From the NCBI GenBank assembly GCA_008632985.1, contig QPGO01000026.1, positions 186,001 through 250,000 of the forward strand: DNA of 64,000 nucleotides, read 5' to 3'. This stretch comes from Psammoneis japonica. Lineage: Eukaryota. The notes below the pieces were generated by a model. The model had not been told where the DNA came from, ran no database searches, and saw only the letters and a program-made list of their open reading frames with translations. How positions within the stretch are numbered: position 1 is the stretch's first letter; every line of letters begins with the position of its first letter. Shown here piece by piece: positions 1 through 64,000 of this stretch. A program made the position numbers and the translations under genes.

Positions 1-700
1 CAAACCTTTGTGAAATCCCATCTTGGCACTGACACTCGTTTTGGCAAACCGGTTTTGCAATTTTTGGTTTCTAGAGTGACAGGAATAGACTCGCTGGGTG
101 GAAGAGGGAAATGATTAGTTAAGGCACGCATCAACTCTTTTCTCCTTGGCAGAACTGTGCCAAGCTCAATGTTGCTGTTGCCAGTGTGCCTCTCAATGAA
201 ATCAACAATGCAATCGCACAATTCCAGGGGAGCACCACGTGTGTCCATGATCTTCTTGCACAACTCTACGCAAGCTCCGTTGAGATTTGTCAAAGAGGGA
301 GTAGAAGCCAAGGCCTCTTCTGCAGGAGCGTCGTGCCTTGTCCCCAAACGTTGATCCTCATCGTGAATGTCCTCTTCCTCCTCCATTGTCACGTCCAACA
401 CTGCAGCAAAGGATTGACCGCCGCCAACATCCAAATCATTCATTGCCAAAAGTTCAACTCCATGCATGCTGTGGTTTGATGAAATGGAGGACATGTCGTC
501 CATTCCGCATGGCGCGTCATCCTGGGAGGGGAACAAGGGGCTGCTGCTCGGATCACTTGTTGAAGATCTTGGGAATCGGCTGCAAGTGGATCGCCTCGGA
601 TGGGATTCGTCATCATCAGAGGACAAAGAGGAAGAACTGCCGCTTTCTTTGGGTGCCCCCTCTATTGTGGCAGGAATGTCGCTTTGATCTGGGACCAGAT
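1..700 (-). pseudogene. N-terminal part of a degenerate transposase-like ORF (Plavaka-like by recollection), running off the window
   Basis: Minus frame reads ...CVELCKKIMDTRGAPLELCDCIVDFIERH...LPRRKELMRAL. It is TpA-depleted and divergent from a transposon-accessory-type ORF. Family assignment is tentative. Confidence 0.35.
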
Positions 701-1270
701 CTTGGGTTTGCAACTCTTGGGCAACTGAGCAACACGTCGGTGAGCATCTCCAATGGCAGGCTGTTCGCAAAAAACTTTGGCCACAACCGGGACAGAGAAG
801 AGGGTTTCCGCCCATTGTCAATCAGACAACATTGACAGGGCCTTCATCAAGACTCATGCTCATCGTCCTTGTCTTGTGGATGGGAGGGAAAAGAAGAACA
901 ACACGCAAAAAAATGGCGGGAAATTGGCAAACATTGCATTTCTTCCAGATTTGGATGATTCTTGTGGGCATGACGTGTCTGCATTTTGATTTTTTATCTG
1001 GCATTCACCATGAATGTTGCACTTTTTATTTGCTGTCAAAATGCGAAATGTTGTCTGCATTGAAACGCAATGACAGCCACACGAAAAAGTGGGTTGGACC
1101 ATTCGTTGTTATGTGCAAACACATTTTCAAATTTCAGTGTTGCTGACAATAATTTGTGCAATGTCACAGAGAAAAATAGAGTGCCTGGCTGTCTCAACAC
1201 GACCCAATCGACGGTTGCACTGTCGAACAGTGCCACTCCTCTCATTGTTGCTGTGAAAAGATCAAGCAAG

Positions 1271-2587
1271 ATGTCGTCTCCAGCACCACCGGCAAAGAAG
1301 AGAAAGAAAAATGAGACTGTCAAGCAAATGAGCCCGAGACTTCAGGCAGTGTTGAAGAGAACAGGTGCGCAGGCAGCGCATGGTGCTTTGAAATCAGAAG
1401 CAGAGAAGGTGGCCAGAAATGATCTCTTTCCACAGCTGAAGTTTCTCAGTCCGTCAGAATTGGCAAGCAATGGGAGCGTCTCAATGTTTGTCAAGAAACA
1501 GATTGCTGGTGGCAACATGGACACTTCAAATTGGTCAGGAACTTGGGAGGAATGGGCAAAAAAGGCGGTAAAAAGGCAAATTAACAATCGCAGAAACACG
1601 GTGTGTTCGGCTGTTGGGGTGGAGGCAATGGCCCGTAAGTTGAGTGACCAATGTGTGTGATTCGAGAGTTGCGTGCATCTCACAAGAATGTGACGGTGAT
1701 GCTTTGTCTGTGCAGCCGTTGTCACCAAGGAAGAGGGAAAGGAAAAAGAAAAGAAACTCAAGGCGGCAGTCAGGAGGAAAAAGCAAAACAGGAAAAAGTC
1801 AAGCCGTGACATCAATGAAGAGAATGACATCCCGTTTGTGCCGACATGGGATCCGTTTGGCCTGGACACCATCACAAGCAAGAAACGAAGGAACAAGCAG
1901 GCACACAAGTGGTTCTGTGATCACATCCTGCCTCAAACCAAGCAAAAGCAGGCATGGAGTCGCACCATCAAAACTGGGAACGCACAGGTCTCACAGTTGT
2001 TTGCGGCAGGTGACGAAGCTTTGGCGCTGTTGGCTGTGGAGAAATGTTGGCAGGTGTGGGCATGCAGGAACAAGGAGGAGGCGGTGGAAGAATTGGGTGA
2101 GGAAATGGAGCCCGAAGAAACAAGGCCTGCCCCTCGGTGCACGAAGCCAAAGAAACAACGAGTGTCTTGGGGAGACGAGGGAATCAATCGGTTCAACGAT
2201 TTACACAAAGAGGTGACGACAGACAGAGACTCCAAGGAGGGCAAGGAGTTTGAAAAGTGGCATGCGGAGATCAAGAAAAGCGAGTGCGAAAAGTCCGAAG
2301 AAGCAAAAAAGAAGAAGAAGGAAGCACCGACCGGTGATGCGGAGAAGGTGAAGGCAATGAACAGCCCAATGGTGGAGAGCAGCAGGGACGATGACAGTGA
2401 CGACGATGAGCAGGAGGAAGGGACAAAAGGCGAAACGGACGACGGAGGAGACGAGTCCGATGGAGATGAGTCCGATGAGGATCGTCAGCTTAGTTCAAGA
2501 GAGTTGCAGCAAGAAAATGTGTGCACAGTTAACACAGCACTCAGTCATTGCACTGCAGACATGACGAGGGATTGCCTTGGCCGATGA
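1271..2587 (+). pseudogene. Two-exon transposon-accessory-type protein (NLS-rich N-terminus, acidic tail)
   Basis: ATG at 1271; GT-AG intron 1635-1715 joins the 1070 and 1838 ORF frames in frame. Motifs GDEALALLAVEKCW and SWGDEGINRFNDL..EV..DR. TpA-depleted. Confidence 0.5.
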
Positions 2588-5233
2588 AATGATTTTCTCA
2601 TTTCAAACAATCTTTACGAAAATTTACAAACCAAGGATTGTGTGGCAATGCAATCATGCATTGGCACATGGCAACAAGGTGGAGGCAGAAACAGTGATGT
2701 GGACACAGTGAAAAATGGCGTGCATGATTCTTGACAAGTCATTGCAACATTTGTGTGCCAAACTTGCAACCAGAGGTTGGCCTTTAATTGTGTCGCAATG
2801 ATTTTTTGCAATGTTTTGATGAATTTTTATCATGCAAATCTGCACATTTTTAACATTTCGTGCACTCTGATGAGAACTTGTGCATGTGGATCAAAGTGGC
2901 AAATTGCACTCTAACCCTGCAGTCCAAAGACTTTTTGAACATGTTTTCTAGTGCAGCGCAAGACTCAGATCTCTGGGGCCAATGCCTCCAACCAGAATGA
3001 CCCTGTTGAGTGCGGTCACTTGGCAGCACAGAATGCTGCTCATGCTGTGCTCATTGGAGCAGATTTGCTCGTGAAGTTTTGGCTGCATGCTTTCCATCAC
3101 TGTCTCTGCATCACAAATGCCAAGATGTTGCTCCTGCTGCTCTCTTGCTGCAGGAAAAAAGGAAGGCTGTTTGGTGCTCACACACCCGGATGCCATGTTT
3201 GAGCTTGCAAGAATTGCTGTTGCCTGGCTGTTTTGTGCTCCAACTGCTCCATCAAGGAAATTTTCCTTGGTTGCCTCTCTGATGCTGCCAAGAGTGTCAT
3301 CTGGTGTGAACCTGCCACATCCCATGTCAAGATTGACAAGCACATTTGTTTCAATGAAGGCATGAATGACCTTCCCCATGCAGTTGCTGCAAGGTTGCAT
3401 TGGCTGGGACTTGTCTTGTGCAGGAATGACTGGGAGGACCTGACTCAAGCAATGGCAGTTTCTGACGTGGGTGGCACAAGACCATCTTGATTTCAAAAGT
3501 CCAGACCAGCATGTCTGGCATCCAACTAGAATGGTGTTTGGAGCTCCCAATCAAAGAGCAACCACAGCCATTTGTGGTGCTTGCCAGCAATAGATTCACC
3601 CATCACCGCACTGATCCATTGCTGGTGCACACCAGCAATGCATTTGCCAATGACCCTGCATCACTGACTGAGAAGATGGTGGGCACCAATCTGTTTCTGG
3701 TGCTTGCCAGTGACAGAATTTTTCTTAAAAAGACTCATTTCTGATTGGCGTCAATGCTGCATGTCAGAAAAACAGGGTGGTGCGTGACACTGCAGCTGAG
3801 CTTTCTCTTTGTGCCAAGAGACTGCACAGGGAAACACATGCATGGGCCATGCACCAGGTCTGCAGAGCAAGGTTCAAAGTGGAAACTGAAAACCTGCCAC
3901 ATCAATTGTTTCTCTGAGAATGTGCTCAGGCATCCCCTGAAAACAACTCACCAGACAATGTTGAAAATCCAAGTGTCGGGCCGTGCTCACTCCCAAAAAG
4001 TGCTCCTTCAGGTGCTCCTTGACCTTGCCTTAAACACATGTTTTCAAGGCCCACCTTTGGATCTTTGGCTCTTGAGCATGTCACCTGGCATTGATCGGAT
4101 GACATGACTCATTGCACCATGTGGCCAGTGCAGTGTGGTGCAGAGCAAATTTGTTCACCATCACACTGCCACAGCAAGTTCACTGTCCCAACTCTTGGCA
4201 GGAGCAGTGTGAGCCTCAAGCCAGCCATCTCTCAGAAGAGGTTGCTCTGTAAACTTCATGAGAAGCCTGTTGCTTGCTGGACAGTTGTTGTGCGCAGATG
4301 AGATGAGCGGAAATGACTTGTTGGGAATTCTGTTTTTGGCTCACTCCACTGTTCGAACAAGTTGTTTGTCGGAAACGTCAGAGCGGCACACAACAAGCAA
4401 TGGGAGGAAATGTTGAGTGTGCTTATGCCGCGAAACACAACAGGCTTTGTTAACCCAAAAAGCGATTCTCATCGTTTAACAGTTCCCAGATCCATTTGTT
4501 CAATCGGCAGGATCCATGGCGCTTTTTGAACAAACTCCTGGCAGTGGATCGAGAGAGACGCTCTACTTTGAATACACACTTATTATAACAATGGATCAGA
4601 CAACCGTTATAGAGCACAGAATGTGTTTTTGAACTTGTTGTTTCACCGCGTGCGGCAGCTGGCACATGCAAAAGACAGCAGGTTGCGTTTCCTTGTCAAA
4701 CGTAATTGGAAACGACAACCAGCATTGTCACCAGTAGCCAACAAGAATTCCTTAGTTACATCTCGAACAGCAACGTCTTTCCAATAATGCGGGCCCTCGA
4801 CAACAACAGTGCGGATTATGATGGGAGTATTATTGCGCATTCCATCCTTTTTCATCACTAGAGGAAAGTAGACAAGCGCGGGGTGCTGCTGATTTGTTAA
4901 ACTGAAACAATACGACACAAAGAGGAGAGCTTCCTTCTTTCCAACCACACCCACATTGGTTAATGAGCAACGATTTGGTGGCGTCAGCAATTTCCCGCTG
5001 TTGATGAAAGGATTGTCATTCCCTTTGGAAGCAAGAACAAGTCTGCGTAATTATTGTTCAACATTCAAGCTTCGGGATACAACCGCCAGAGCGTTCTTCT
5101 GATTGGCTCCATTCAAGGGATTCTCTCTTGAGTCGACGTGTCATAGTAGTCGACAAACAAAAGTCCACACTGAGAAGCTAGATAGGCGGCATTTTCATTG
5201 TTTTCCAGCACAGAGATCTGCCTTTTGCTTTGA

Positions 5234-7890
5234 CTAGTCAAGAGGACGTTTTGAAGGTGACCGCGTCGCCTTAGCCATGTCGTTTAAATCCAATCCGTCT
5301 TTCCGAAGGATCTGAACATTGGCTTCGGTCAAGAATGACACCAGACCAGGTTCAAGCACAACAATCACTTCCAAATTTGACGGGACAACAGTTTCACGGA
5401 AAGACACCCCATGGCCGTAACGCCAAGCAATTGTATTCCCATTTAAGTCGATAACATCTGTGCCCGTTGGTAGTTTTGTCTTGTCCGTTGTCAGCGCGAC
5501 CATCACAAACACTACTTGCTTCTCGCTGACGTGACAACACGACTTCTGTAGCTCTTTAGCCATCATGGTCGAATTCACCTCCTGCTTGCCGTTCTTGAAC
5601 TGCATCTCAACAATGGCATCCGTACGGTCGGTTCTGAAAAGCAGGTCTCCAGAAGAAGACATTGGTCGTGGAACGTAGAAGATTCCATTCTCAAACAAGC
5701 CGACTATTTTCGCAAGGTCATCCGGGTGGACGTCATTGAATCCAGCAGCAGACGGGTTGTCGAAGAACTTACGCAAGTCAGCGACAGTTTTTCCAGGTCT
5801 TGGAACGGTCGTAATTTTGGGAAATGATTTAAAGTCGACGTATCGGAATGTGTCCTCCCCGATGATAGATCCTTCCAAGAAGGGCAGGCACTGGCCGAGA
5901 GGTCGAGGGTCCAAGTGGAGCTCCTCGCTCACACGCAAGCGAAGAATGTGCTGTACCATTGTCTCTAGCAAGTCACCTGATCTCTGTGCTTTCGCCTGAA
6001 TTGGGAATACATTGTACAGCGAACTCCAAAATGGAAGCCGCGGATCTGGACTTTTCTCTGCAACTTTGTCCAAGATGACCGGGGGTATGACCAGAAAATG
6101 GCAATCGGCATCCCAGCGTTGTAGGTACAAGGGAAACGCGCTACACACTTCCAGCGTCATTACGTCCCCTTCAAATCCCCAGAACCGCCCTTCGATGGTT
6201 GTGCNNNNNNNNNNNNNNNNNNNNNNNNNNNNNNNNNNNNNNNNNNNNNNNNNNNNNNNNNNNNNNNNNNNNNNNNNNNNNNNNNNNNNNNNNNNNNNNN
6301 NNNNNNNNNNNNNNNNNNNNNNNNNNNNNNNNNNNNNNNNNNNNNNNNNNNNNNNNNNNNNNNNNNNNNNNNNNNNNNNNNNNNNNNNNNNNNNNNNNNN
6401 NNNNNNNNNNNNNNNNNNNNNNNNNNNNNNNNNNNNNNNNNNNNNNNNNNNNNNNNNNNNNNNNNNNNNNNNNNNNNNNNNNNNNNNNNNNNNNNNNNNN
6501 NNNNNNNNNNNNNNNNNNNNNNNNNNNNNNNNNNNNNNNNNNNNNNNNNNNNNNNNNNNNNNNNNNNNNNNNNNNNNNNNNNNNNNNNNNNNNNNNNNNN
6601 NNNNNNNNNNNNNNNNNNNNNNNNNNNNNNNNNNNNNNNNNNNNNNNNNNNNNNNNNNNNNNNNNNNNNNNNNNNNNNNNNNNNNNNNNNNNNNNNNNNN
6701 NNNNNNNNNNNNNNNNNNNNNNNNNNNNNNNNNNNNNNNNNNNNNNNNNNNNNNNNNNNNNNNNNNNNNNNNNNNNNNNNNNNNNNNNNNNNNNNNNNNN
6801 NNNNNNNNNNNNNNNNNNNNNNNNNNNNNNNNNNNNNNNNNNNNNNNNNNNNNNNNNNNNNNNNNNNNNNNNNNNNNNNNNNNNNNNNNNNNNNNNNNNN
6901 NNNNNNNNNNNNNNNNNNNNNNNNNNNNNNNNNNNNNNNNNNNNNNNNNNNNNNNNNNNNNNNNNNNNNNNNNNNNNNNNNNNNNNNNNNNNNNNNNNNN
7001 NNNNNNNNNNNNNNNNNNNNNNNNNNNNNNNNNNNNNNNNNNNNNNNNNNNNNNNNNNNNNNNNNNNNNNNNTAAGCGAGGCAGAAAATTTGCCCCGAAA
7101 GTTGATTTCCCGGCGCCAAACATCTGCGCTGATGTTGCTAGACTGAGTCGGTATTGAGATTGTGAACCAGTTGTCGTTGTTCGGTTTCTCTTCCGCTTCT
7201 TGTAATTCGCAAGTAAGACCGTGGCAAGTTGCTCGCATTCTGCCTCGCGGTTCACGAACGGCAAAGGAGTAGCTGATTCATCAGATTCAGAAACCTTTAG
7301 CGCCGGGAATTTGTCGAATAGTACCGTGAGTGAATTTTGTTGTTGCTGCTGCTGCTGCGATAGACTCGCCGCGGTCAGAAGATCTCTATCAGAACCATTA
7401 GCCGCTCGGTCCAGATGGACACCTGGAGATTCCTGTGTATTCTTTCCATTTCGGGGTGCGGCAACTGGTGTCTTGAAGGGGCTATGCAGTGACGCTGCAC
7501 GAGTCACAGTGTTAGACTCATCTGGAGTTGAAAGCGTAGGCGTGATTGAACATTATAGTACAAGTACAAGCAACAGTTAAACTAACCTTCTCCCTGCTGC
7601 TGCCACGGAGGTTGGTGGTCCAGCAGAGCTTTTACAATAAGAGGGTTTGGGCCCGTCGTATCTCTTGGAACGGGTTTGTAAGGCTTGAGAGGCTTGTCTT
7701 TGTTCGGATCTGCACCCGCAGCAAAGACCTGGAGTTCTGAAGCATCCGTGTTCTTCAACGCATTTGCTGACTTCTCCTTGATCTTTACCCTCAGATTTGC
7801 CACAGTACGCGTAATATCGCCATCTTCCAATGATACGTAATCCACCGATGATGCGAGGTCAAGAAGCTTGTACCAAACAACGATCGTCAT
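5234..7890 (-). CDS. Crinkler/CR-type protein copy 1: N-terminal ubiquitin-like header, P-loop NTPase, C-terminal REase-like domain
   Basis: ATG at 7890; intron 7586-7522 (GTTAGT...CCAG) restores frame. Header VVWYKL...LRVKIK...LQVFAAGADP...NPLIV; Walker A-like QMFGAGKST; GDLLF...EMQFK. Middle hidden by an N gap. Confidence 0.7.
6205..7072. other. Assembly gap (N run)
   Basis: Run of n inside CR-type gene copy 1. Confidence 0.99.
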
Positions 7891-7943
7891 GGTGTTGACC
7901 CAGAAATCTCGATTTTCACTGCACCGTGCAGGCATCTTGCTCA

Positions 7944-8146
7944 AAACGCGCGAATTTCGCGCGACCACTGAGTCTTGCTCTCAGCTCATGTGGAGGGATT
8001 GTTGCAGAGAGCATGTTTTTCCAAACCAAAAGTGGCTGGCCTGAAACGCGCGAATTTCGCGCGACCACTGAGTCTTGCTCTCAGCTCATGTGGAGGGATT
8101 GTTGCAGAGAGCATGTTTTTCCAAACCAAAAGTGGCTGGCCTGAAA
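7944..8146. repeat. Tandem duplication of a 100-bp unit (2 copies)
   Basis: aaacgcgcgaatttcgcgcgaccactgag... starts at 7944 and at 8044. Confidence 0.95.
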
Positions 8147-8278
8147 GTGCAGAAAGCTGCAGATGAGTTGTGGCATTGACCAAAAATGTGCCATCGACTC
8201 TGACTCCTTCCTTCTCTCTTTTCTCCTTTCTTTTCTCCTCCTCTCTTCCTCTCCCACTTCGACACAATTGAGGGCCTT

Positions 8279-9042
8279 TGCAGCATGACGGGTTCCAGTC
8301 CTACCGTAGGTGGGACTTTTTGTGACATTTGCCCCGTAGAATTCTACGTGCGAGCTCTGTAGTTCGTACTCTGGTTAATGTATATATTTATCTTCGACAT
8401 AAAAAAAACGGCCAAGTTTGTAGTGCATCTATCCCTGTCCGTACTCGAAGTTTTGGATAATACGCCTGCCCTACGCCATTCTTAAGACACTCGAGAATGG
8501 CGTAGAAGAAAAAAATATTAAAAGTTGTTCAATGGATAGCCTGATAATTGTACTATAAAATCATACAAAATTTCGCCAAAATCACGTAGAAATGTACGTG
8601 CGCGACATACGACGCGATTCAAAAAACTATCGATGTCACAGTTCAGTAGTGCGAGGTCCCACCTAGACCTGGAACGCGTCGCATGCGACTGTTACACACA
8701 TGTTTGTAATTGTGTGTTGTGTGTGTCAATCGCACCACAGTCGTGGATGCGTACAAAGGACAGAACGATCACACAGAGTTGATCGGATGTCGAAAATTGC
8801 AAACACGATCGATTGATGATGTTGACATCTTGCGTGTCAACAGCAATCGCACCCGGACAATCTGTTGTCACGAATGTATTCTCCGAAAGGCCTTTTGTTT
8901 GTAGAAGCAGTGCAGAAGCTTAAGGCCATTGAGAACTCATTCGGAGAAACCAAAAATCACAGAGCAAAATTTAATCTCACAATTTTCCACTTTTCGTGCA
9001 CTGTTCTACTTTCGTTTGCACTCGTTCTTCGAGCACAATGCA
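8279..9042 (+). repeat. 5' LTR (~366 bp after removing the nested MITE)
   Basis: tgcagcat...gcgactgttacacac...cttcgagcacaatgca aligns with 30598-30713 plus 40763-41014. Confidence 0.85.
8287..8680. mobile_element. MITE (~394 bp) with GACG.GTTCCAG-type TIRs and 4-bp TSD GCAT
   Basis: gcat|gacgggttccag...ctggaacgcgtc|gcat. Shares internal motifs such as gtagaattctacgtgcgagctc with the copies at 22921 and 38970. Confidence 0.85.
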
Positions 9043-42436: not shown

Positions 42437-42536
42437 TACAAGATCATGACGCTTCCAACCTTCCCCCCGCAACGGTTTGTTGTGAAACCATGCACGAACC
42501 AAATAATAAAAAATACATGCATTGGTGTTAATCACG

Positions 42537-49776: not shown

Positions 49777-49959
49777 TTTCTATGCAAGAAGATGCACTGC
49801 CCTGATAATTTACAATGTCTCACTGAAGCCTTGCCAGTCGAATGGCTCTTCGATCGCTCAACCCTTATAGTTATGGGTACTCAGGAGAAAAGGTGAATCC
49901 CAAAATGTGTGAGGCAAACCACGAGAGACCGCGATGATGAGTTCAGTCGTGAAACAGGC

Positions 49960-50817
49960 TCACCACGACTCAAGTGCGGCGGATAGACCATCACTCCAGC
50001 AAGTACACCCAGCAGGCCGTCAAGAACGTTGAGGTGGTGCATCTGGGTGAACGCTGCCCTGGACGGACATTGCCATGTCGAACATTGATCTGATGATGGA
50101 GGTTTCTGAGCTCTCCTCATTTCTTGTTGTGCCCAGGGAGGGTCACCTTGAGGCTGTCTTCCATGTCTGTGGACACCTCAAGGTGAGACATGATGCCAGG
50201 TTGGTGTGTTTGACCCAACACAACCGGACATTGATGTGTCTGACTTCAAGGAATGTGACTGGAAGCTATTTTGTGAGGACGTGCAAGAAGCAATCCCACC
50301 CAATGTGCCAGAACCTCTGGGCTTGGAGGCAGATCTGTGCTTGTTCATGTTGACTCAGACCATGCAAATGACTGGTTGACAAGGCACTCACGTGCCGGCT
50401 GTTTCACCTGCATGAACATGGCTTTGGCAGTGTGGTTTTCCAAGTGCCAAAGTGCGATTGAAACCTTGGTTGTCAGGGCCAAGTTCATGGCCATGAAACA
50501 AGGCATGGAGTCATTGCATGGCCTGTGGCACAAGTTGCAGATGACAGGTGCACCATTGTCTGGTCTGGTCTGCATCTGTGGGGACAACATGTCAGTCGTC
50601 CACAACACACAAAGTCCAGAGTCTGTTTTGAAGAAGAAGTTGAACTAAATTTGCTGCCGTGCCTGCCATGAGGAAATTGGCAGCAATGTGTGAGTCACTC
50701 ACTGGACACATTTGTTTGGAATGCAACCCTGCAGATCTTGTGGCTGAGATCATGTGTGGTGACATGAAGTGAGACAGACTTGTGGGGATGATCCTCCGTG
50801 ACATTTGTGAAGACTGA
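49960..50817 (+). mobile_element. Ty1/Copia (CoDi-like) RT-RNase H remnant, heavily mutated
   Basis: PSKYTQQAVKNVE, PREGHLEAV, HVDSDHA..TRHSR, WFSK.Q..IET, GDNMSVVHNTQSPESVLKKK. Confidence 0.88.
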
Positions 50818-51539
50818 AAGTCCATCACATCTGGTTCCCTTTCTTCCATGGGGGTCAGTGCAGGACACCAGGGTTTCTTTGTCATGTTGGAATGACTGAA
50901 TGTGGCCAGAGAGCAAATTGGGTCAAGCCAACTCATTGTCCAATTTATTGACTTGAAGGGGACTGAAGAATTCACCCCCTGCGATCAACTCGAGTTGGGT
51001 TTTTGTGCCTCATCATTGGCAATTGGGCACCAAGCAGTTCCTCAGGTTTAGATCTCACTTCTAGAAATGGCAGCACGATGTTGCATGCTTTCTTTCAGTT
51101 TTGTCCCTCTGGTGCACGCAACTGCAGGGTGATTTGTTCACATCAGACATCTTGAAGAAACTGTTCATGCATCAATGGAAAGCCCAAGTTTGCATGATTT
51201 GCATCTCTTGCAGTCCTGAGTTGCAAAAGTTGGCTGCATTCTTTCTAAAAAAGTTCACAATCACCAACAACTGAGTGGTCAATGAAAGCATGATCAACAA
51301 TCAAGAGTCGCGGATCTGGACCACAGATTGCAGATTGATTGATTGTGACACTCTCAGTGCCTTGCCGCCTGTGTTGTTGTCACTGTCTCCATTCCTGCAT
51401 CATTTTCATTGCTTGCATTGCACTGACTCTTCTGGAAAGCAGCCACAGTCTTCAACAGTCCATTCCTGTTGCTGTGCTTGGCTTGGTTGCATCTCGTTTT
51501 TGGTTGTGTGTGTGCAGATGGGTCACATGCATGATTTTG

Positions 51540-51800
51540 CAACAGCATGAAACTCAAAGAAGCCTGCCGTCATCTCCGGGAAAATGACCCCACACATTCT
51601 CTCCTCCTGGCAACATTGATGACAATGGTGCAAAAGTGCTTGCAAAGGCACTTGCAACCAACTCCATGGTGCAAAAGCTCTGTCTTGCAAACAACCAAAT
51701 TGGTGATGCCGGTGCAAAAGCACTTGCAACGGCACTTGCAACCAACTCCACATTGCAAAAGGAGCTCCATCTCTTTGCAACAACCAAGTCAGTGTCAACG
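51540..51800 (+). pseudogene. Leucine-rich-repeat (RI/NLRC3-like) gene fragment
   Basis: NSMVQKLCLANNQIGDAGAKALATALATNSTLQ. Confidence 0.7.
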
Positions 51801-51833
51801 GTGAAAAAGTGTTGCTGCAATCCCTGCAACAAC

Positions 51834-52465
51834 TCAATGTGAGGCATTTTGCAACCTGGAATGTGGAACAGCCACTGTTTTTGTGCTGTGGTGCTCCTCG
51901 GCAGGCATTGCTGGCTGGGCATCATGTGTCCAGGCTTGCATGTCAAAGCTGCAGCCCCCATCATGGAGGCAGTGCATGTTGCCAAGAGTTTTCTTCTTGG
52001 CGCACCTTGTGACGGGATGTTCACAAAACTGTCTGACATGTCTCACATTGTCCGGTGCCTTTGTCATGGCACCGCTGCAATCACAGATTGGTGTGGGGTT
52101 GCCAAAGGCATCCACAGCATTGTCACAACACTCTCCATTGTGACAGCACCCATTGTTCCTCCCATCATCACATTCCTCAAAACTGCGCCTGCACCTCAAT
52201 CCCATGTGTTTGGGGGCACAGATGCAGTGGCATCCCCCCGGACTTTTTGTCAAGACATGAAAGGAAAGAAAAGGTCCATTTGAAAGGACGTGATTTGAAA
52301 AATCCTCATCACCCACAACACACAAGAGACTGCCATTGTCACATTTCAAGGTTGCATCTGGCTCAGCACTGCAATCCAAATCACACTGTGCACTTGACTT
52401 TGCCAGCATGCTCAGCAGCACCACAACGGATGATGAATCAATGCAACGAGAAGCGACTCCCATCT
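51834..52465 (-). pseudogene. EGF-like repeat secreted protein, decayed
   Basis: Signal-like start, CICAPKHMGLRC, CHNGEC, CDC...FCE, CLHDGGC. Confidence 0.6.
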
Positions 52466-55048
52466 TGAATCTAACAGGATGCATTTGTGTTGGTGCAGTG
52501 GTGCTTTGTTCTGCATTGAAGATGTGTTTTGCGTCGCTGTTTTTTGAGTTGAAATTGTTTCCATTGAAGCATCTTGTCTTTCTCAGCGATGATCCAATGC
52601 AAATTGGTGTGCTTGCCACAAGATGAGAATGCTGCCGGTATGATGTTGGATTGTGTGTGCTTCATGCTTTAAAAAAAATGAAGGAACATGTCCGGTCAGG
52701 TGCTTGCAATGTGTTCAGCATGCATGACGCCCAGATGATTGGAAGAACATGGCCAGTGCAGTTGCAGCTCTCTGCTCTACTCTGCTGGCAAACGCTGCAA
52801 AGAACAGCAACATGCCATGAGGATCTGTCCAAACACATTGTCTGCTGCTCAATTGCTCACAGACGCTGCCGTTGAGATGCAACCACACGTCAAGCCACTG
52901 CATCATTTTGTTTGTTTCCTCTCCAGACCTGACTGGATGTGGAAAGTTCCAGAAACAGATTTTCCCAAAACAACAAATGGCATTGTAAGACTTGTGTCAT
53001 GTGGAACATTGGCCCAGAAAGCCATTGCAAGCTTCAGCAGTCAAAGACATTCACGCTGGAAAATGACAAGCAAAATGAAAATGTGAGTAGAGCAATGCAC
53101 ACAATGACAATCCGTTGGGATCACGTGATGTCACAGCGCACTCATTGGGGCACCTTTTAGAGGGAGAGCTGGGTTGCCTTCCCAGCGGTTTGTGGCATCT
53201 GTGCATCCAAAAGAGAAGGCAACGAGCCTGCCAACACAAGCCTCAACCTCCCCATTTCACCCATTGCAAAGCCTGGGCGTGTCGGCACACTGCCAAGATC
53301 TCCCCAAATAACTTGGACAATGTTGTGTCTTAGGCTGTGAAGATGATTCCGTTGCATGGCAGGAAGAAAGGCTCATTGCAGACCAGATGCCTGCACACAT
53401 GAACAAGACACACAAAAAAAGGCTCGTGAGGCACATGAGGACTTTCATCAAAATGACTCTAAAACTCAATCAATCACAACACACTCACAGGATTGTCTTT
53501 TTTGGACTGTGATGAGACTGTCTTACAAGTGCCAATGTCGCAAGTGTCCTCCAGGCTCCATCGCGCTGTTTTGTTTCCACGGTGTGCACTTTTGAGAAAT
53601 TGACACGCCCGAAAAATGACACACCATTGTCGTGCACCAACCAAGCCCCCAAGAAGGACATCAAATGAGTCACAAATCCATCAATGTGCACAACAGGTGC
53701 ACAAAAGGATGTGGAGTGGGGCGAAGCATGAGGCTCCCAAAGGGACAAGCTGTGGTGGTGCAACACTGTGAAAAGTCGCCAATGTTGCCGAGACAATCAA
53801 TCGACCTTGCAAGCTGTGACAAAATGCAACAACAATCTTTGGCAAGCATTCAAACAGCGTGGCAATGTTGTCGACCACTCAGATGTCACCCGTGCCATGC
53901 CACATTTCTTGAGCTGCAAGTCAAGATGCGCAACCGTTTGTGGCATGTGTGGCAACCAAATCACCCCAGGAGACCAAATCAATGCATCAACTTCTTTGTG
54001 ACAACAACAGAAAGAGATCACCCATGAAAAATGCGTCTGCCCCATGATGCATGCCATGGCGAGATACATCGAAGTGCAGTGTGCATGGCCATTTCAAATC
54101 AGGAGCGTTTGAGTGGAGTGAAGGAAACAAAGAGGATTCCTCCTCAAGGCGTCCTCATCAAATTTGAACCAAAATGGACCATTGCTTTCTACGTGTCCTT
54201 GTAAAAAATGGCATTGCGTCCTTGTCAAATCCCATTTAAGTTCCAGCATAAATCCCACAGGCAAAAGAAATTTGTGTGGAAATTGTTGCACTGAAAGAGT
54301 CTGTCAATCTGTGCGTTAGGTTGTTTTGGTGAATGCTGGACAGACTCGTCTTCTTTTGCATGCGACGGTCTGTCCATGGCAGCGAAGTTTTTTTTGCTGT
54401 TCAAAAATCTCCATGCTAGCAGCTCCCAAAAGTCTGCCCGCTGCAAAAGTCTGCCCGTGAAACCGCGCAGATTTTCGGCGCTGATGCCAGAAACCAAAAA
54501 ATCCTGCCGGCACCACATCGGCTGTCGATCACAATGGCGTTCATTTAAATCGACGCCTCGTCCAGTGATGCAGTCGTTGCCTTTCTCACTGTGCAGGAGA
54601 GCCAAATGTGTGTCGGTGCAAGAATCTGAGCCTTTTGAACTAAAAAAAAAACGAGAAAAACGAGCTGGCGCAACAATCAGAGTCTTGTGAATGCACGCGT
54701 CAAAGATGAACAGGCCAAACGGATGGAGAGTCAACGACGGTGAGTCTTGACAAGGCATTGACGGTTTCTTCATTGGTGTCCATACAAAATCCATTCACAG
54801 ACATCGGGATGTCGTTCAAAATTTAATTTCTTTTCGTTGTGCATGCTTTTTCAGCGACGAGTCTTGACAACGCATCGACCATTTGTTCATTGATGACCAT
54901 GTAGAGACCAGTCAACGAATGTCAAGACTTCAATTTAAAAACACATTGGTGCGTTTTGAAATTCGATTTTGAAATGTAATCTGCTCATTTTTTGTTCGTT
55001 CAGTGCTCATAATTTTCACAATCCCATTTTTAACACTTACTTTTCTAT

Positions 55049-58000
55049 CATGACAGCCTCGAAAGCGCAGCGGACATCTTCAACAAAGAAGAAAAAGCGC
55101 ATTGAAGCATGCTCTTCTCTCCTGGCTAGTGGCCAAGTTCTCTCCACTGTTGCTAGTGTAGCAAATGCTGCATGTGATCGTGTGGATGAAGGGAGCAAGC
55201 ACAAGGCGAAACGAATGTTGAAAGAAATTAGCAAGGTCGCAGAAGTGGCTGCAGCCACTCCCTCGGATCGTAACATATTTCAACTGGCGCACAGACAGCT
55301 TTCTACGTGATTTCTACGTACCTCGTACGAATCACGTAGCCGTAACAGCACAAAACGTCTGGCCTCCACCCCAATCCTATGCCGGTAACACTCCACACTT
55401 ACTCCCGCCTATTTATTGTACCGGCCGGTACCAAGAGGTTCGATTCTTCATGCTTTTGAACTTCATTCAGCACCCCGTCTACTCACCACCAGTCCAAAAC
55501 AACACGAGTGCATCTCTTTCAACTGGAAAGTTGATTGACAGAAGAGTGAAGAAAGATCTCTTTCAGAACTTTTACTCTCTTGACTGTACCAGCATAATGT
55601 AAGTGTGACGAATCGGGAAACTCGGGTCGAGTCGTCGACACGGCCGGATTGAAGTCAAAAGGAGCTCCGCAAGAAAACAAATAAAGAGCTAAGAGAGTTA
55701 TACTAAAACTGTAAAAAGATGACAGCTCGATTCCCAGATAAAGGTGACTCGATGCAAACAATCGATGCTACTCATTGCATGGAGTGATCTGAGTAACAAA
55801 CCCCGGCCAATCGCACGATACTTTGCACCTCGGACAAGAATAAAGCCCTCCCAACAGCATCTGAATAATTCCCATAGGAGTGATGTTTCTGTCACCAATC
55901 TTCTCCAAATCAAACATTGCCAGCATAACCACGTACACGTCCTTTTCCCACCTGCAAATGCTCCTTGAAACCAACTGATCCACCACGAATGACGTTGTTG
56001 TAACCTGCAAAGATGTCCTCCAAGAGATTGATATCTTTCGACCTCCTAATGATACCATGTTTTCTGGGTTGTCAAATAGATCAGGGTGTCCATAATGTCA
56101 TCGGATGCAGAGAGGTCTTCAAGGAATTTCTTGCAAGGCCGCCTAGTTTGCCAGAGAACTCACACACCGTGTTTTAATACATGATCCATGAACACCACTG
56201 CTTGTATCATCAATATATTCCATAAAGTAAATCATGAGGCCCTTTCGTGGGGAAGAATCTGTGTGCGGACCGAGAAACAAACAGAATAAGTGCCGGACCG
56301 CTGTCGTCTGTTGGAAACACACCAACCACGAGTCGCGACGTCCAGAGTCCAGAGCTCGTCTCAAACACTCCAAAGGTGCCCCACACATCAGCGCCTTTTA
56401 TCTATATTTATTATGAAACGAATGAGGCATAGGTAAAGGGATGAGAGGAGGGAAATAATAACAAACTCGACGAAACATACCGGAACGACGACAACAGCGG
56501 CAGACTCATACACCGAAGGAATCGAAATCGATATTCTTGCGCGGAGTGGCACTTGTCAAAATTCAGCCAACACGTAATGGTGCTATAGACAAATGTCGAC
56601 AATATCCTGAGTGACTCACCTCGTGAAAACAGGTGACAACGACGGTGGACGCGAAACAAATTCGCCATGGTGGCTACGCAAATTCTGCGTAGAATTTTTC
56701 GTTTTTGTACCAGGAACCAAAAAAATCGCACGTTGCGATTTTTTTAAGCTGTGCCAGTTAGCCTGGTACAGCGATATGTTACGATCCGTGGGAGGTCTTC
56801 TCTGTCTTTTTCCGTACCACTTACAGACCTCCCAGTTGGGAGTGGGCTGCAGCCACTGTAAAATCCAAGACGAAACAGGTCAATGATGAATCCGTGTCTG
56901 CAATAGAGTACGTCCAACACACTCTTAGAAAAGAGCAACAGATGCGGCAGAAGGCTGCTGCTTTGACGCCAGAGGAACGCAGTCGAGCCGAGCTTCGTGA
57001 CCACATTGTGAAGAACAAGGAGAACTTGAGAAGTGCCAAGAAGAAAAGGTCCAGTGGCACGACGAGTGCAGCTGTTGTCCTTCGGAAGCCAGCGATCGAG
57101 ACACAGAGTAGACTTCGCTACAAGGGCCCCAAAACATCACCGGATGCAGCACAGAGTAGCACAGATGACGTGCAGAGTAGAACGGCGTTGCCGTCGGCAC
57201 CACCGCCTCTCAACCGGCAAATCTGTTCTCCAATGGAGGCAGCCACGATGCCACTTGGCATTAAAAATGGCAAGGTGCGGGCTGCGATTTGATGACATTG
57301 GATTGCCAAAAACCTTGTTCCCATCAAGGAGTGTGCCGTGAAAGCTCTGTGCACTCGTGTGAAGAGAAAGCAGCCGATGCGAGAATGCTGGCAGGATTTT
57401 GGTCGGCCGCGGAAGCTGCGCAGGTCTGAGATTGTGAGTTTTGGCGATTCACTCATCTGCAACAACTTTGGTAAAGTGGTTGCAGCGGAAACATGGAGAG
57501 ATGCCATGATTGCAAAGGAGAAGCGTGAGGCCGAAGCCAGAGGTGCTCACCCTGAAACGATCAATGCGAAACCGGCATCGGCAACGACGATTGAGCGGCA
57601 CATGCTGTTTCACGCTTGCCAATCTGTGATGAACATCTCTCCCGTAGAGTGCATCTCATCCAAATTGGAATCACGACAGATTGCGGAAAGGAGCTTCATG
57701 AGTGCCGTGGCTCTTGCCGTTGTTGTCACAGGAACTCACTTCTGGCCCTGCCCGCCGGGTCAGGAAGCATTTCAGCCACTCGACAAGGCAACAAAAGGTG
57801 CCAAGCTCGAATGCCAACTTGCGAAAGAGGCATTCGGTGGTGCGCCTCTCCAGTGTGTCTTTCCATCACTGGTGACGTCTGCGGATGACATGACTCTGTT
57901 TGTCTTTAAAGGCATCAAGGAAAAGGGAAAGAGTGACAAGCTCATGACAGCTCATGGAGATGACATCAAGGGAAGTGGAGTCCGCAGTCTAGTCGATCCA

Positions 58001-60625
58001 AACAAACCAGTTTCATGCCTGAATGGAAGACGCATTAAGTTAGGAACAACAGGCAGCAGCATGGGAGGGTCGGCGCCACGGCACATTGTTGTCACTGTTT
58101 CAGAGAACGAACTGCCATCTGAGCATGCGCCCGATGGCTTTTTACCCATGAAGGTTGAAGGACTTGCAGGCACCGGAACGACTGGCTTCATTGTGTTTCT
58201 CCGCTCTGACGGCACAAACTCTGTCCATGTCAGCAGGTTCCTGCATCAACAAGAGCACTCACTCTTCCAGTTCCTGCAGCAGGTGCGGGCGAAGCAATTT
58301 GACCGTGCCCCTGGAGAGAAAGGACACGACATTCCGTCAGAATTGCGAGCTGTCTGCTGGAGTGACGGAGCGCAAGATCAGCTGGAGGCCACAACTGTTT
58401 CATTGAACGAGTGGAAGAAACAAAAGGCTGCAGCTAACAAACAGAATCCAGCGCGGAGTGGGACGGAGCAAGGTGAAGATTTATCTTCCAAACACCCAAT
58501 TGTTCGTACGGAATCCGAATGCAACTCGGCTTTGATGGACGACGAGCATTTAAAGTCGCCAATCCAACGCCAGTTGGAGTCTGCTTTTTCCCAGTTCAGA
58601 GGGAAAATCAATCTGCCGGCTCTACACAGGGACGCAATCATAGACTTCGCAGCCACGTTTCCAGATGTATGGGCAAAGGCGTTCACATCTAGCAACGTTC
58701 GGAAGGGGATGGAGGAAAATGGCAGGGTCGACACAGGTGCACGGAGGTCTCCAGACATTCATCAGATGCTCTGTGGTGCGACTCGCAGAGAAGTTTCAAA
58801 AGAGGAAATGGGCAATCTGTTCAGCCGGGATGATGATTTTGTAAACTACGTCAGTGGCTTGTTGGGTTCAGAGAATCCCCGGCATCCCCTTGAATCCCGT
58901 AAAACTCCGTCAAAGTTTGTCTGTCTTGTTCAGCATTTTCTTGAGAAAGGGTTTGTCCCCGATGAGTTTTTTGAGCAAGCTGGAATTGAACAAGACAGAA
59001 ACTCAAAAGGAGAAGTTGTTCCCCGAGACTTCCCGATCACAAACGAGTCTCGCCAGAGGGCTAAATCTTTGACCCATGACAACTCTGTGTCGGAGCGATT
59101 TGCAGTGTCACAGGAAATTGCGACGGCAGATAGAGCAAACGCCACGGCTGAAATGGTGGCTCGTAACACGTTGCTCCAAGAGAATCTTGCGTGTGAGCAG
59201 GTGGTGGCAAAGCTGCACGAGACTCGCACTGGGATGCCCTTGTCAACTGTTGCCAATGCAACCGTGAAAGATTTCCATCACAGCACCAAAGTCAAGGCCA
59301 AGCATTTGCAGGCCTTCACACATGTGCGAACTTTCGAGACAAGCAAGAAGACGAAGGAAGCCGGCTCGTGGCCGAATGAAGGGACCGTTGCAGATGCAGA
59401 GAATGGGAAAGACACCCTTGTCATGCGTGCGTTTAACTGCCGAACCAAAAATCCAATTCTGCAGCAGTTGAACGAGACTGACGTGAGCGACCGCGCTGCA
59501 CAGGCACACCAAGATAAGGAAAATAGACGCGTCACCCTGGAGACAGTTGCTGCCACTAAGATGGTGTCTGTTGGCAGCCCCTCTTTTGACGACAACAAAT
59601 TCGAGATGTCTGCGGCATGGTTGACCATGAGCAAAGTGGCATTCAATGGTGTCGGGCGAGCTCAAGCCGACACAGCAGCAAATGCACAGGAAATCGATGT
59701 CAACAAGCTGCAACTCGAGATTGATTCCCTTTGTCAGTGTCTGTGGGTGCGTCTAAAAAATCACATGCAGAATTGTGTGAAAAGCAACCTCAGAGATCAC
59801 TGGGTTTGGCGATTTGCTCGTGCAAACCTTTCGAGAGCTGCGGCAATCATGGTGCTCAGTGGACACGTCCACAAAGATTTGCGTCGATTTGTGAATCGTC
59901 TGACGACTTGCCTTCTGCTCAACCCTGAAAATGCCCCCTTTGAACTGCTCATTGATGAGAATGGAGAACCAATGGAGCTGTCGACGAAGGAGCAATGTGC
60001 CCACATCATTTGGGACATTGAGTTGCAGACATGGATCCGCAGCGGCAAAGCCAGTCGCCCCTTCTGGCTTCGACACAAGGATCATGAGAAGGGCAGCCTG
60101 CTCACAACGGAAGCATCACGAGAATCTCATTATCACCTTTGTTGCCCCTCCAAGGAGTCAGATGCACAGCATCATGAAAATCGCATCGGCTGGTTTGAGA
60201 ACCTCCAGATGTTTTGTGCCGCCGGATGTGAAAAGAGTGCAAGCGGTGCTGCGCATCTCTGCGAACAAGGGGGGTTGTTTGAATGGTCATTCAAGGTCGA
60301 ACAAAAAATGAAGCATTGTCAGTCATCAACGGCAAAGAAGGAGAGGAAGCTCCTTCTGGTTGACCACTTGATGGAACCATGCTGCGACTTGGCCATGTCC
60401 CCTGTGGACAATGTCTCTCGCAGCCCGGGATTTGAGACCTTTCTCAATTCCATGCACAGGCAGATGTTGTGTTTGTACAACAGGAAGTCAACTTGTTTCA
60501 TCTGTGTCGGTGTTCATTGTTTTTTAGTCTACACTCGTTTTAGTCACCTGCTTCGAAACCCTTTTGCTCTTTTGCTGCCGAGCACAGTAAACAACCGTGT
60601 GTTGTTACGTGGTCGAAAAATTTAG
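55049..60625 (+). pseudogene. Large pogo-like transposase, interrupted by an insertion and by TGA-TGA at 57290-57295
   Basis: ORFs 55049-, 56894- and 57338- join in one frame after removing 55256-56853; VTSADD, WSDG, EQGED, AFTSSNVRKG motifs. Confidence 0.7.
55256..56844. mobile_element. Non-autonomous DNA transposon with 9-bp TSD GGCTGCAGC (MULE-like)
   Basis: ggctgcagc|cactccc...gggagtg|ggctgcagc; inner inverted match cggatcgtaacatat; excision restores EVAAATVKSK. Confidence 0.88.
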
Positions 60626-61341
60626 CATACTTTCTGTCACAGTTCCGGCAAAAGTCTGCCCGGGCAGACTTTTGGGAGCTGCTAGCATGTGCCGGAGGTA
60701 TGTAAACAGTAGCGAAGTTATTTTTGCTATTGAAAAATCTCGACACCAAAAATACTTATCGAAAATCGGCTTTCGTCAGTCACTAAAACACACCCAGTTG
60801 CAGCGACTGACGAAAGCCTTTTTTCGATATCTTCAGTTGTAAGAGCTGTAGAGCAAGAGCAAAGTATAGAAACAAGGTGTCCCATAAGTAATTTATATAG
60901 TATACAATCCTGGATGAGATTTCGGAACTCCGGATTAAATGTCAAATTTATGATACGATTAATGTTTGTATATAAATATAAAAATCAATTAAAAAAGGCG
61001 ATATAACCGTTATTTTTCTTTAAATAAATACCAAATTTTCAACGACAAACATTCGCTTTCCGCTCACTCCGACCGATACAACATGCGTTTGACCTTGTTC
61101 AGCTCGTCGAGAGCTTTCCACCGATATATGGGTCTTGGGGTCTGTGAGGCGATCCTGAAAAAAAGTTCGCTACTATTCACATACCTCCGGTACCATTGAC
61201 AGACTGTCGGTACGCAAAAATTGTACTTGCAAAACCCCCAAACGCACTGACGGGCAGACTTTTTTCAGCCAGCGGCTATGGGCGGCTGGAGCAGGAGTCG
61301 TCTTCCCCCAGATTGCCGAGATTTTTCTGCGGGTCAACACC

Positions 61342-63978: not shown

Positions 63979-64000
63979 AAATGCCGCCTATCTAGCTTCT

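Follow-up and report, generated by a model that had tools for sequence, protein, structure and literature searches.

The stretch of DNA analysed here, 64,000 nucleotides (nt) of contig QPGO01000026.1 from Psammoneis japonica (hereafter the window), appears to consist of single-copy host genes alternating with islands of dead mobile DNA. These islands would comprise a tyrosine-recombinase (YR) retroelement, a DNA transposon of the MULE type, debris resembling LINE and Copia elements, and short repeats of very high copy number, and they carry a common compositional scar in which the dinucleotide TpA is nearly missing. The overall reading, which we regard as probable, is that the transposon islands were hit after integration by a hypermutation of TpA to TpG or CpA acting at the DNA level, with decay of CpG superimposed. 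Observed in the window are the depletion with its direction and the boundaries of its domains, the symmetry between the strands, the dependence on flanking bases and the link with multi-copy DNA.

Dinucleotide abundances were expressed as the observed count over the expectation from base composition (O/E). Across the whole window, which contains two runs of N (6205-7072 and 62254-62818), this ratio is 0.31 for TpA, 0.80 for CpG, 1.45 for TG and 1.40 for CA. Segmentation with a two-state hidden Markov model over T positions assigned 38.9 kb of the 64 kb to seven sharply bounded domains in the TpA-poor state (LOW domains), which alternate with seven normal domains (Table 1). The LOW domains hold 326 TpA against 2,497 expected (O/E 0.13), 1,514 CpG against 2,368 (O/E 0.64) and 7,502 TG plus CA against 4,867 (O/E 1.54), compared with 930 TpA against 1,611, 1,358 CpG against 1,328 (O/E 1.02) and 3,365 TG plus CA against 2,927 in the remainder of the window. 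When scaled to the O/E of the normal domains, about 1,100 TpA and about 900 CpG are missing, a combined deficit of about 2,000, and the excess of TG plus CA is about 1,900; the surplus thus approximates the two deficits together, and the accounting fits a conversion of TA to TG/CA in addition to one of CG to TG/CA. Windows of 500 nt show a TpA O/E of either about 0.0-0.25 or about 0.4-1.0, with values of 0.05-0.2 across long stretches as opposed to 0.5-0.7 in host genes. Other dinucleotides are little changed, and the GC content is slightly higher in the LOW domains (0.493 vs 0.469). A near absence of TpA from element DNA and its normal frequency in host genes had been proposed from the bare letters of this DNA in an earlier sequence-only reading, and both are borne out by the segmentation and the counts; its hand counts of 4 TpA in element DNA at 50041-51060 (O/E 0.06) and 15 in a host gene at 12181-12480 (O/E 0.81) were exact.

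The scar reaches deeply into the coding potential of the islands. Open reading frames (ORFs) in LOW domains encode 0-0.8% Tyr, 1.7-6.9% His and 2.8-8.0% Cys, and Tyr makes up 3.0-3.6% of three of the four host ORFs and 1.0% of the fourth, which is repeat-rich and 1,493 residues long. Stop triplets per kb differ in the same sense between LOW and normal domains (TAA 3.4 vs 9.6; TAG 2.5 vs 7.9; TGA 22.4 vs 17.7). Because TAA and TAG are removed and TGA is only modestly increased, long open frames abound in the LOW domains on both strands, and the dead elements retain ORFs 700-1,100 codons long. Stretches of 110-1,100 codons without a stop occupy many frames of both strands in LOW domains, for example in 22174-41940; the window has 76 listed ORFs of at least 150 residues, and the LOW-domain frames are a source of spurious gene calls. 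Within the largest LOW domain lie the MULE remnant, the YR retroelement and a LINE-like ORF, together with tandem repeats of 111 bp and short repeats of high copy number.

Table 1. Domains, genes and elements of the window, with dinucleotide ratios given as O/E.
Feature	Position	Strand	TpA	CpG	Remarks
LOW domain 1	7-4378		0.10 (n=30)	0.47	TG/CA 1.62; no Pfam family recognised
LOW mini-domain	7884-8286		0 TpA in 403 nt		
LOW domain	8769-11154		0.16		Short repeats in common with 30617-30939 and 40762-41014
Host ORF, 1,493 residues	11649-16127	+	0.56		Internal 24/48-nt tandem repeats; spared
LOW domain	17083-20945		0.12	0.42	
Largest LOW domain	22174-41940		0.15 (n=178)	0.72	19.8 kb; TG/CA 1.50
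SWIM zinc finger	25041-25469				Pfam match
MULE DNA-transposase remnant	25777-27105	-	0.08		Pfam PF10551, E 3.1e-08
Putative LINE-type reverse transcriptase remnant	28171-29112	+	0.10		Tyr 0%
YR retroelement ORF1	33547-35238	+			Gag-like position; tblastn match to the ORF upstream of the reverse transcriptase in L001 (24% identity, E 5e-24)
YR retroelement ORF2	35275-38226	+	~0.10		Predicted reverse transcriptase and RNase H
YR retroelement ORF3	38028-39693	+			Cre-like tyrosine recombinase (tblastn); frameshifted, interrupted by a 415-nt insertion
Very-high-copy insertion, 415 bp	38970-39384				Inside ORF3; inverted copy at 22921-23316 (90% identity)
Arg of the H-x-x-R box, ORF3	39523-39525	+			CAC (His); Arg in the five homologues aligned (HSLRVG)
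Catalytic Tyr, ORF3	39616-39618	+			TGC (Cys), TAY to TGY; Tyr in 10/10 homologues
Single-copy host block	41949-50004		0.56	1.10	Spared; X1 depth ~60, exact contigs
HA-domain ORF	41943-42314				Host block
MORN-repeat gene	42787-44472	-			Host block
WASH-complex CCDC53 gene	48871-49779	-			Host block
Most extreme LOW domain	50020-54894		0.08 (n=28)	0.42	TG/CA 1.78
LOW domain	57188-60453				Carries most of the open 1,109-residue frame 57296-60622 (Tyr 0.4%)

The YR retroelement is organised as three ORFs on the plus strand, as recognised by comparison with the ORFs of related metagenome loci. When the open frame 36034-38226 was used as query, phmmer returned 890 homologues library-wide, and a pattern scan of metagenome contigs yielded 17 related loci (L001-L017), which served as outgroups and whose ORFs were compared with the window by tblastn. 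ORF2 was detected neither by Pfam nor by a PDB sequence profile. An AlphaFold2 model of an intact ORF2 homologue (P0101), based on a 92-sequence alignment, gave a predicted local distance difference test score (pLDDT) of 87.7 and a predicted template-modelling score of 0.85, and its top PDB folds are the reverse transcriptases with RNase H of foamy virus, cauliflower mosaic virus, xenotropic murine leukaemia virus-related virus, Ty3 and Moloney murine leukaemia virus (E 4.9e-8 to 1e-6); an earlier model of the reverse transcriptase core from 11 sequences had a pLDDT of 47.9 and was discarded. Judged by this predicted fold, ORF2 is a reverse transcriptase/RNase H. The family formed by ORF2 and L001-L017 carries HVDD where most reverse transcriptases carry YxDD, and is detectable as a reverse transcriptase by fold comparison only. 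The change of YIDD to HIDD that the sequence-only reading had placed at 36904 has to be given up, as the His is ancestral; the homologues shown read H/Y-V/C-DD, mostly HVDD. For ORF3, a profile of nine homologues matched the C-terminal catalytic region of Cre (E 0.004), with the motifs HSLRVG, LLRW and YLRN of the homologues aligned to HSARVG, GGW and YIRN of Cre, and HSLHVG and CLRN in the window copy. Since the reverse transcriptase fold is accompanied by a Cre-like recombinase profile, the element at 33547-39693 is classed as a tyrosine-recombinase (DIRS-like) retroelement. The column at 39616, at which the loss of the catalytic Tyr (YLR to CLR) had been predicted and is now confirmed, aligns with the Tyr of the NYIRN motif of Cre, and the replacement of Arg by His at 39523 is the kind of change expected from decay of CpG to CpA.

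The direction of change was determined in this element at columns that are covered by six or more outgroup loci and agree in 60% or more of them. All 17 outgroup loci have a TpA O/E of 0.53-0.75 in the homologous ORF (CpG 0.68-1.20; TG/CA 0.97-1.27), compared with 0.10 in the window, and the 150 best homologues have a median Tyr content of 3.1%. The window copy keeps 366 of 563 conserved residues overall, distributed as 364 of 544 at other columns and 2 of 19 at Tyr columns (Fisher p 9e-7), where Cys is found instead at 7, His at 5, Phe at 4 and Ile at 1. Broken down by frame, 1 of the 13 conserved Tyr columns of ORF2 is kept, with Cys at 5, His and Phe at 3 each and Ile at 1, and 1 of the 6 of ORF3 is kept, with His and Cys at 2 each and Phe at 1; in a comparison with 35 database proteins, 1 of 8 Tyr columns was kept, with His and Cys at 3 each and Ile at 1. 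A context-controlled test used only amino acids for which codon positions 1 and 2 are invariant. At codon position 2, A had become G at 7 of 19 columns with a preceding T (Tyr to Cys), compared with 1 of 120 columns in which A, C or G precedes (p 2e-6); at codon position 1, T had become C at 5 of 19 columns with a following A (Tyr to His), compared with 1 of 58 columns in which T or G follows (p 0.003). The opposite change, a Tyr replacing His or Cys, occurred at 0 of 20 columns. By this outgroup comparison the loss of TpA in the YR retroelement is to be read as mutation, not native composition. The replacement of Tyr by His or Cys, claimed in the sequence-only reading, is confirmed for 12 of the 19 conserved Tyr columns, and the claim survived the outgroup codon tests on the point that could have undone it, namely ancestral sequences equally poor in TpA with His or Cys at these sites, or no polarised excess of TA to TG/CA. 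Repeat pairs within the window place 71 of 94 clean-flank transitions on the axis between TA/CG and TG/CA, an axis that is not polarisable from the pairs themselves. A candidate enrichment of TA/TG or TA/CA differences in a duplicate of 98.45% identity (5 of 14 clean-flank differences) was withdrawn because changes from TG/CA to TA have a much larger target.

The sequence-only reading considered such a process undescribed, which no longer holds. Mettrop et al. (bioRxiv 10.64898/2026.01.13.699255), in what is the only relevant description found by full-text literature searches, reported the same TpA-specific hypermutation, to TpG or CpA, of nucleocytoplasmic large DNA viruses (NCLDV) as well as virophage integrated in the genome of Bigelowiella natans. 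According to this preprint, 231 of 302 nuclear point mutations in mutation-accumulation lines fell into an integrated NCLDV and a virophage, 230 of the 231 mutations in the hypermutable regions were A to G or T to C, all at TpA, and the rate was about 1000-fold over background and was seen in only some lines. The same source lists 324 TpA-depleted coding sequences enriched in reverse transcriptase and DDE domains, and its authors propose an ADAT2-like DNA adenine deaminase. The two cases agree in a change of TpA to TpG or CpA only, on both strands, in foreign or selfish DNA, with gain of CpA and TpG and with host DNA spared. They differ in that de novo events were measured there and a genomic footprint is seen here; the NCLDV region has a Rho of 0.45, whereas the window is near saturation (O/E 0.08-0.16); the main target there is a single-copy virus, here multi-copy transposons; CpG is co-depleted here, and the words 'CpG', 'trinucleotide' and 'flanking' do not occur in the text of the preprint, which gives no context beyond TpA where the window shows a rule for the flanking bases. 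Taken together, the process of B. natans seems to recur in the window, as a second case that has gone further towards saturation. In the text of two diatom transposon papers, a search for the terms dinucleotide, hypermut and RIP, and in one of them for TpA, gave no occurrence.

Among established systems, repeat-induced point mutation (RIP) of ascomycete fungi resembles the present case as a context-dependent transition hypermutation of repeated or mobile DNA that leaves a domain-wise compositional scar. However, RIP changes C:G to T:A (typically CpA to TpA), thereby makes TpA and stop codons and lowers the GC content, and the opposite is found here. The opposite direction had been asserted in the sequence-only reading and agrees with the fall of TAA and TAG, the slight rise of GC and the absence of changes from His or Cys to Tyr. 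As to the trigger, RIP responds to duplication, and here the LOW domains are multi-copy, yet a 97-98% identical duplicate is unaffected.

Beyond the dinucleotide itself, the bases on either side determine which TpA remain. Survival, expressed as the ratio of LOW to normal (HIGH) domains, is 0.06 for TAT, 0.13 for TAC, 0.31 for TAG and 0.33 for TAA. Among tetranucleotides it rises from 0 for ATAT (0 counts vs 116) through 0.04 for ATAC/GTAT, 0.058 for GTAC, 0.10 for ATAG, 0.11 for ATAA, 0.22 for GTAA and 0.23 for GTAG to 0.41 for CTAG, 0.55 for TTAA and 0.66 for CTAA. Briefly, RTAY is erased and YTAR is largely spared (R, purine; Y, pyrimidine). An additive half-site model fits these values, with the rate at which A is hit set by its 3' neighbour (-ln survival of about 2 for T, 1.2 for C, 0.45 for G and 0.3 for A); the same values can be read as T being hit at a rate governed by the base on its 5' side. 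A flank rule reaching beyond TpA appears to be new. Its second formulation leads to an explanation that we hold to be unlikely, in which thymine is attacked in 5'-RTA-3', for example by hydroxylation of the TET/JBP type to 5-hydroxymethyluracil, and mispairing or faulty excision repair then yields C. Every datum fits a change of T to C at RTA equally, TpA being self-complementary, and the rule is unlike the 3'-neighbour preferences of adenosine deaminases known to us; no evidence of thymine modification was found, no such enzyme is among the Pfam matches in the window, and we know of no case in which 5-hydroxymethyluracil gives clean T to C transitions at such a rate. The authors of the B. natans preprint favour adenine deamination, as a hypothesis only.

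Copy number was estimated from k-mer contigs of the public run X1 placed along positions 35000-54999, with bins classed as single-copy at a summed depth of at most 130 (n=12; single-copy depth about 60) and as multi-copy above 200 (n=18). All 18 multi-copy bins have a TpA O/E of at most 0.31 and all 12 single-copy bins one of at least 0.28 (Mann-Whitney p 6.5e-6), and the ratio correlates negatively with summed contig depth (Spearman -0.66). Host genes all lie in normal domains, and depletion is confined to repeat or transposon DNA. Of the earlier claim of repeat targeting, the association with multi-copy DNA therefore stands, all multi-copy bins being TpA-poor; against induction by repeats stand the undepleted 97-98% duplicate and the single-copy main target in B. 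natans. The 415-nt insertion in ORF3 is instructive as to timing. Its bin (39002-39668) has a summed X1 contig depth of 70,616 vs about 60 for single-copy DNA, which suggests a copy number on the order of a thousand; three X1 contigs skip 38969-39384 and thus lack the insertion. This insert, the youngest that can be recognised, is less mutated than the element enclosing it (TpA O/E 0.31-0.36; CpG 0.98), which suggests that mutations accumulate in place over time.

The loss of CpG from the same LOW domains went unnoticed in the sequence-only reading. In the YR retroelement, 5 of 46 conserved Arg columns have become His and 2 have become Cys. The two depletions are loosely coupled, with O/E values for TpA and CpG of 0.07 and 0.73 at 36001-38000 and of 0.05 and 0.23 at 50001-52000. 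CpG decay through 5-methylcytosine shares with the window the loss of CpG to TpG and CpA but cannot remove TpA, and the loss of CpG is a second, separate layer that does not explain the loss of TpA. Ordinary decay of CpG to TpG or CpA would thus be superimposed, which fits 5-methylcytosine on silenced repeats. The CpG decay in the LOW domains, which points to silenced chromatin, and the seemingly cumulative TpA depletion (0.36 in the young insert at 38970-39384 vs about 0.10-0.15 in the older element around it) would also suit the passive accumulation of skewed replication or repair errors in late-replicating heterochromatic repeats, with no dedicated system. We rate this explanation as quite improbable in view of the extreme specificity of the change, namely the near restriction of A to G at codon position 2 to sites after T, the complete loss of ATAT and the additive half-sites. 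The B. natans mutations, which occur at about 1000-fold the background rate in single-copy DNA and in only some lines, likewise look regulated.

The two strands are affected alike. Tyr was changed 7 times to Cys (A to G on the sense strand) and 5 times to His (A to G on the antisense strand). TG and CA are similarly enriched on the sense strand of ORF2, ORF3, the MULE, the 1,109-residue frame and 50001-54000, and their O/E values in five oriented stretches are 1.39/1.47, 1.51/1.36, 1.56/1.66, 1.44/1.40 and 1.90/1.81. The LOW domains continue uninterrupted through the non-coding stretches between ORFs. The MULE transposase remnant, besides the SWIM finger almost the only thing that Pfam recognised in the LOW domains, encodes 0.7% Tyr, 3.4% His and 4.1% Cys, with 133 TG and 134 CA on its sense strand; here hypermutation is read from composition alone, that is, from its low TpA O/E and Tyr content. 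The change acts at the DNA level and is strand-symmetric. Because of this symmetry, and because a DNA transposon and non-coding DNA are affected, editing of sense RNA followed by reverse transcription cannot explain the pattern, which upholds two statements of the sequence-only reading, that both strands are hit and that neither reverse transcription nor RNA editing has produced the change as an artefact: the marks are symmetric, and a Pfam-verified MULE has the same composition as the verified retroelement. Its core inference of a change of A:T to G:C at the DNA level in repeat or transposon DNA is supported by the polarised codon tests, the nearly equal gain of TG and CA, the MULE and the retroelement.

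These observations leave very little probability for ADAR-like editing of double-stranded transposon RNA, fixed through reverse transcription. Such editing could account for A to G changes after a 5' T, since a 5' U/T is the ADAR-type preference (also named in the Discussion of the B. natans preprint), and several affected elements are retroelements; however, the strands of oriented ORFs are hit equally, the MULE and non-coding DNA share the composition, and the order of 3' neighbours (T>C>G>A) is opposite to the 3' G preferred by ADAR. More generally, ADAR and APOBEC of animals are similar to the present case as deaminase-type hypermutation against selfish nucleic acids, with a 5' U preference for ADAR, but they act on RNA or single-stranded cDNA, asymmetrically and on retroelements only, in contrast to the symmetric change here that includes a DNA transposon. 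APOBEC moreover gives C to T and G to A, unlike the TpA-directed change of A:T to G:C.

The sequence itself is reproduced by X1 contigs over 41309-50111 and over 51208-52960, each contig departing from it by at most 1 base and by 0-2 gaps. Over the most TpA-poor stretch, the match is without difference at 51208-52102 and with one at 52091-52960, hence 1 difference in 1,765 nt at a depth of about 60-72x, and the host block is matched exactly. The presence of the changes in reads, which the sequence-only reading had named as a check, holds to the extent that contigs of X1, possibly the source sample, reproduce the window. A sequencing or assembly artefact, in which a modified base in repeats is misread as TG or CA, seems scarcely credible. 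The LOW domains are the likeliest to carry DNA modifications, and the platforms of both the assembly and X1 are unrecorded; apart from the contig agreement, however, the element is also broken in other ways (frameshifts, the insertion, the catalytic Arg to His) and the same replacement of Tyr by His or Cys is found in proteins from JGI, ENA and Logan, which together argue against read-level bias, and the de novo events of B. natans were seen in Illumina data.

The retroelement family includes five further lineages, with proteins from JGI, ENA and Logan sources, that are similarly poor in Tyr, and their nearest relatives, at 40-62% identity, are Tyr-normal. The catalogue proteins P0253, P0172, P0152, P0254, P0233, P0208, P0243 and P0252 have 0-0.8% Tyr with raised His and Cys. 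P0253, with 898 residues and no Tyr, has 5 His and 2 Cys at its 7 conserved Tyr columns, although it keeps 213 of 273 conserved residues and shows A to G at 2 of 55 control columns; replaced Tyr columns number 4 of 4 in P0208, 3 of 3 in P0152, 3 of 4 in P0254 and 2 of 4 in P0233, and P0243 and P0252 have no covered Tyr column. By these protein comparisons the same hypermutation is visible in other public data sets. Dinucleotide signatures vary between genomes and mobile elements generally, and elements of foreign origin or with their own codon usage might be intrinsically TpA-poor; this idea has next to no likelihood left given the TpA ratios of the 17 related loci, the median Tyr content of the homologues, the replacement of catalytic or conserved Tyr and the loss in five or more distinct lineages whose respective closest relatives have normal Tyr; for the YR retroelement it is refuted. 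Error-prone synthesis of the Pol-eta type at WA motifs, of which TA is one of two dinucleotides and which the sequence-only reading had listed as a candidate, is most improbable, because ApA is undepleted (O/E 1.23 in LOW vs 1.16 in normal domains) and AAx to AGx (Asn to Ser, Lys to Arg) falls within the 1 of 120 changes of the control.

With these alternatives weighed, hypermutation of TpA in integrated transposons can be set out as a mechanism. Mobile DNA, once integrated, would be mutated from TpA to TpG or CpA on either strand, at a rate set by the flanks and fastest before a pyrimidine (5'-TAY-3', which is 5'-RTA-3' on the opposite strand). Elements would be killed by missense changes of Tyr to Cys or His, including the catalytic Tyr, with no TAA or TAG created, so that open frames would persist. 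The leading candidate for the agent, put forward tentatively and held at somewhat less than even, is an enzyme of the TadA/ADAT2 type that would be recruited to silenced or foreign chromatin and turn the adenine of T-A-Y into inosine by deamination of the DNA. The natural substrate of TadA/ADAT is A34 following the invariant U33, which makes the T-A context intrinsic, and engineered TadA deaminates adenine in DNA. TadA and ADAT2-3 thus resemble the present activity in their T-A context and differ in the 3'-pyrimidine preference, which is not a property of those enzymes as we know them.

Several points weigh against this interpretation, some touching the enzyme and others the breadth of the evidence. 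To our knowledge the 3'-pyrimidine preference matches no deaminase and is not obviously that of ADAT2/3; ADAR prefers a 3' G and fungal TAD2/3 mRNA editing occurs at UAG, both unlike the rule found here. This mismatch makes the deaminase assignment weak. Furthermore, a change of A to G on one strand and of T to C on the other are indistinguishable at a self-complementary dinucleotide, and neither an enzyme nor a targeting signal is recognisable within the 64-kb window. The polarised test covers one element family only. The MULE outgroup is a single distant cluster, in which 0 of 7 Tyr columns are kept with M, H, G, L, F, F and Q as replacements, and Pfam and PDB sequence searches gave nothing for the LINE-like ORF 28171-29112 and confirmed no identity for the Copia-like element. 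Among the 40 listed of 1,828 variant places, 8 have TG/CA in the window vs TA in the copy and 1 the reverse, and these do not polarise the change. The agreement with X1 rules out assembly or polishing error, not read-level bias, as X1, whose platform is unrecorded, is possibly the source sample. Finally, the large inverted duplicate has a TpA O/E of 0.4-0.55; since this copy of 97-98% identity is undepleted, duplication alone is insufficient, or the duplicate is too recent.

Regarding the remaining elements, the strings that the sequence-only reading had taken for mutated LINE (CAND at 28792) and Copia motifs (HVDSDH and CICGDN, of RNase H type, at 50346 and 50571 within 50020-54894) are present, and neither element identity was verified by Pfam or PDB. 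For 28171-29112, an Atlas feature search based on a language model placed 26 of 30 matches in the RVT_1 set (best score 0.94), which is a lead only, and some of the reverse transcriptase look-alike clusters are commonest in Bacillariophyta. The ORF 57296-60622 has no homologue, no Pfam match and no meaningful PDB match. Within the TpA-free stretch of 403 nt lies an exact 100-nt tandem duplication (7944-8143, 100% identity), and 111-nt tandem repeats form two blocks at 22555-23760 (86-94% identity between blocks) with an intermediate TpA O/E of 0.26-0.41.

The large inverted duplication consists of two arms of 2.3 kb (5173-7436 and 61737-64000, 97-98.5% identity), each broken by one of the N runs, which bracket about 54 kb. 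Weaker inverted similarity continues beyond the arms (7634-7911 and 61317-61580), and just inside them are ORFs that match a Crinkler N-terminus weakly (7585-7980, minus; 61159-61614, plus; E 0.002-0.004). The host ORF of 1,493 residues contains degenerate blocks of 24/48-nt tandem repeats at 13395-13929 and 15786-16206 (60-79% identity) and has weak VWA/integrin-beta matches. The best homologues of the CCDC53 ORF are environmental proteins with 40-57% identity, none of them nearly identical, which sets the window apart from the B. natans reference, and its only organism-named matches are from the diatoms Thalassiosira oceanica and Cyclostephanos tholiformis. In or beside this gene, at 48649-48986, contigs of runs X1 and X2 differ from the window; one X2 contig has 170 other letters replacing these 338, which is not a clean splice, and at another locus, which resembles 48978-49610 at low identity, 249 letters are exchanged. 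These differences may represent length variation or a paralogue.

Besides fungal RIP and the APOBEC and ADAR editing of animals, we know of few eukaryotic cases in which invaders are inactivated by directed mutation. A TpA-directed change of A:T to G:C entered the literature in 2026, from a single alga. The window adds that the TpA signature can saturate across unrelated transposon classes, that a second, ecologically dominant lineage is probably affected, and that TpA hypermutation coexists with methylation-type decay of CpG. The flank rule, with TAY hit and YTAR spared, constrains the enzyme and is testable against the published de novo mutations of B. natans. There are practical consequences as well, as the hypermutated elements evaded Pfam here, carry long spurious ORFs and are deposited as Tyr-free proteins in public catalogues, which they enter because TAA and TAG are erased, the opposite of RIP. 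A broader conjecture, rather unlikely in our judgement, is that distant lineages of the SAR group (a diatom-like stramenopile here and the rhizarian B. natans), and possibly others, have in common a defence by chromatin-guided base editing of DNA, which converts A in 5'-TAY-3' on both strands of silenced mobile or viral DNA. If true, elements would be inactivated by missense with their ORFs preserved, and the flank rule would be a deaminase fingerprint that may be used to hunt for the enzyme.

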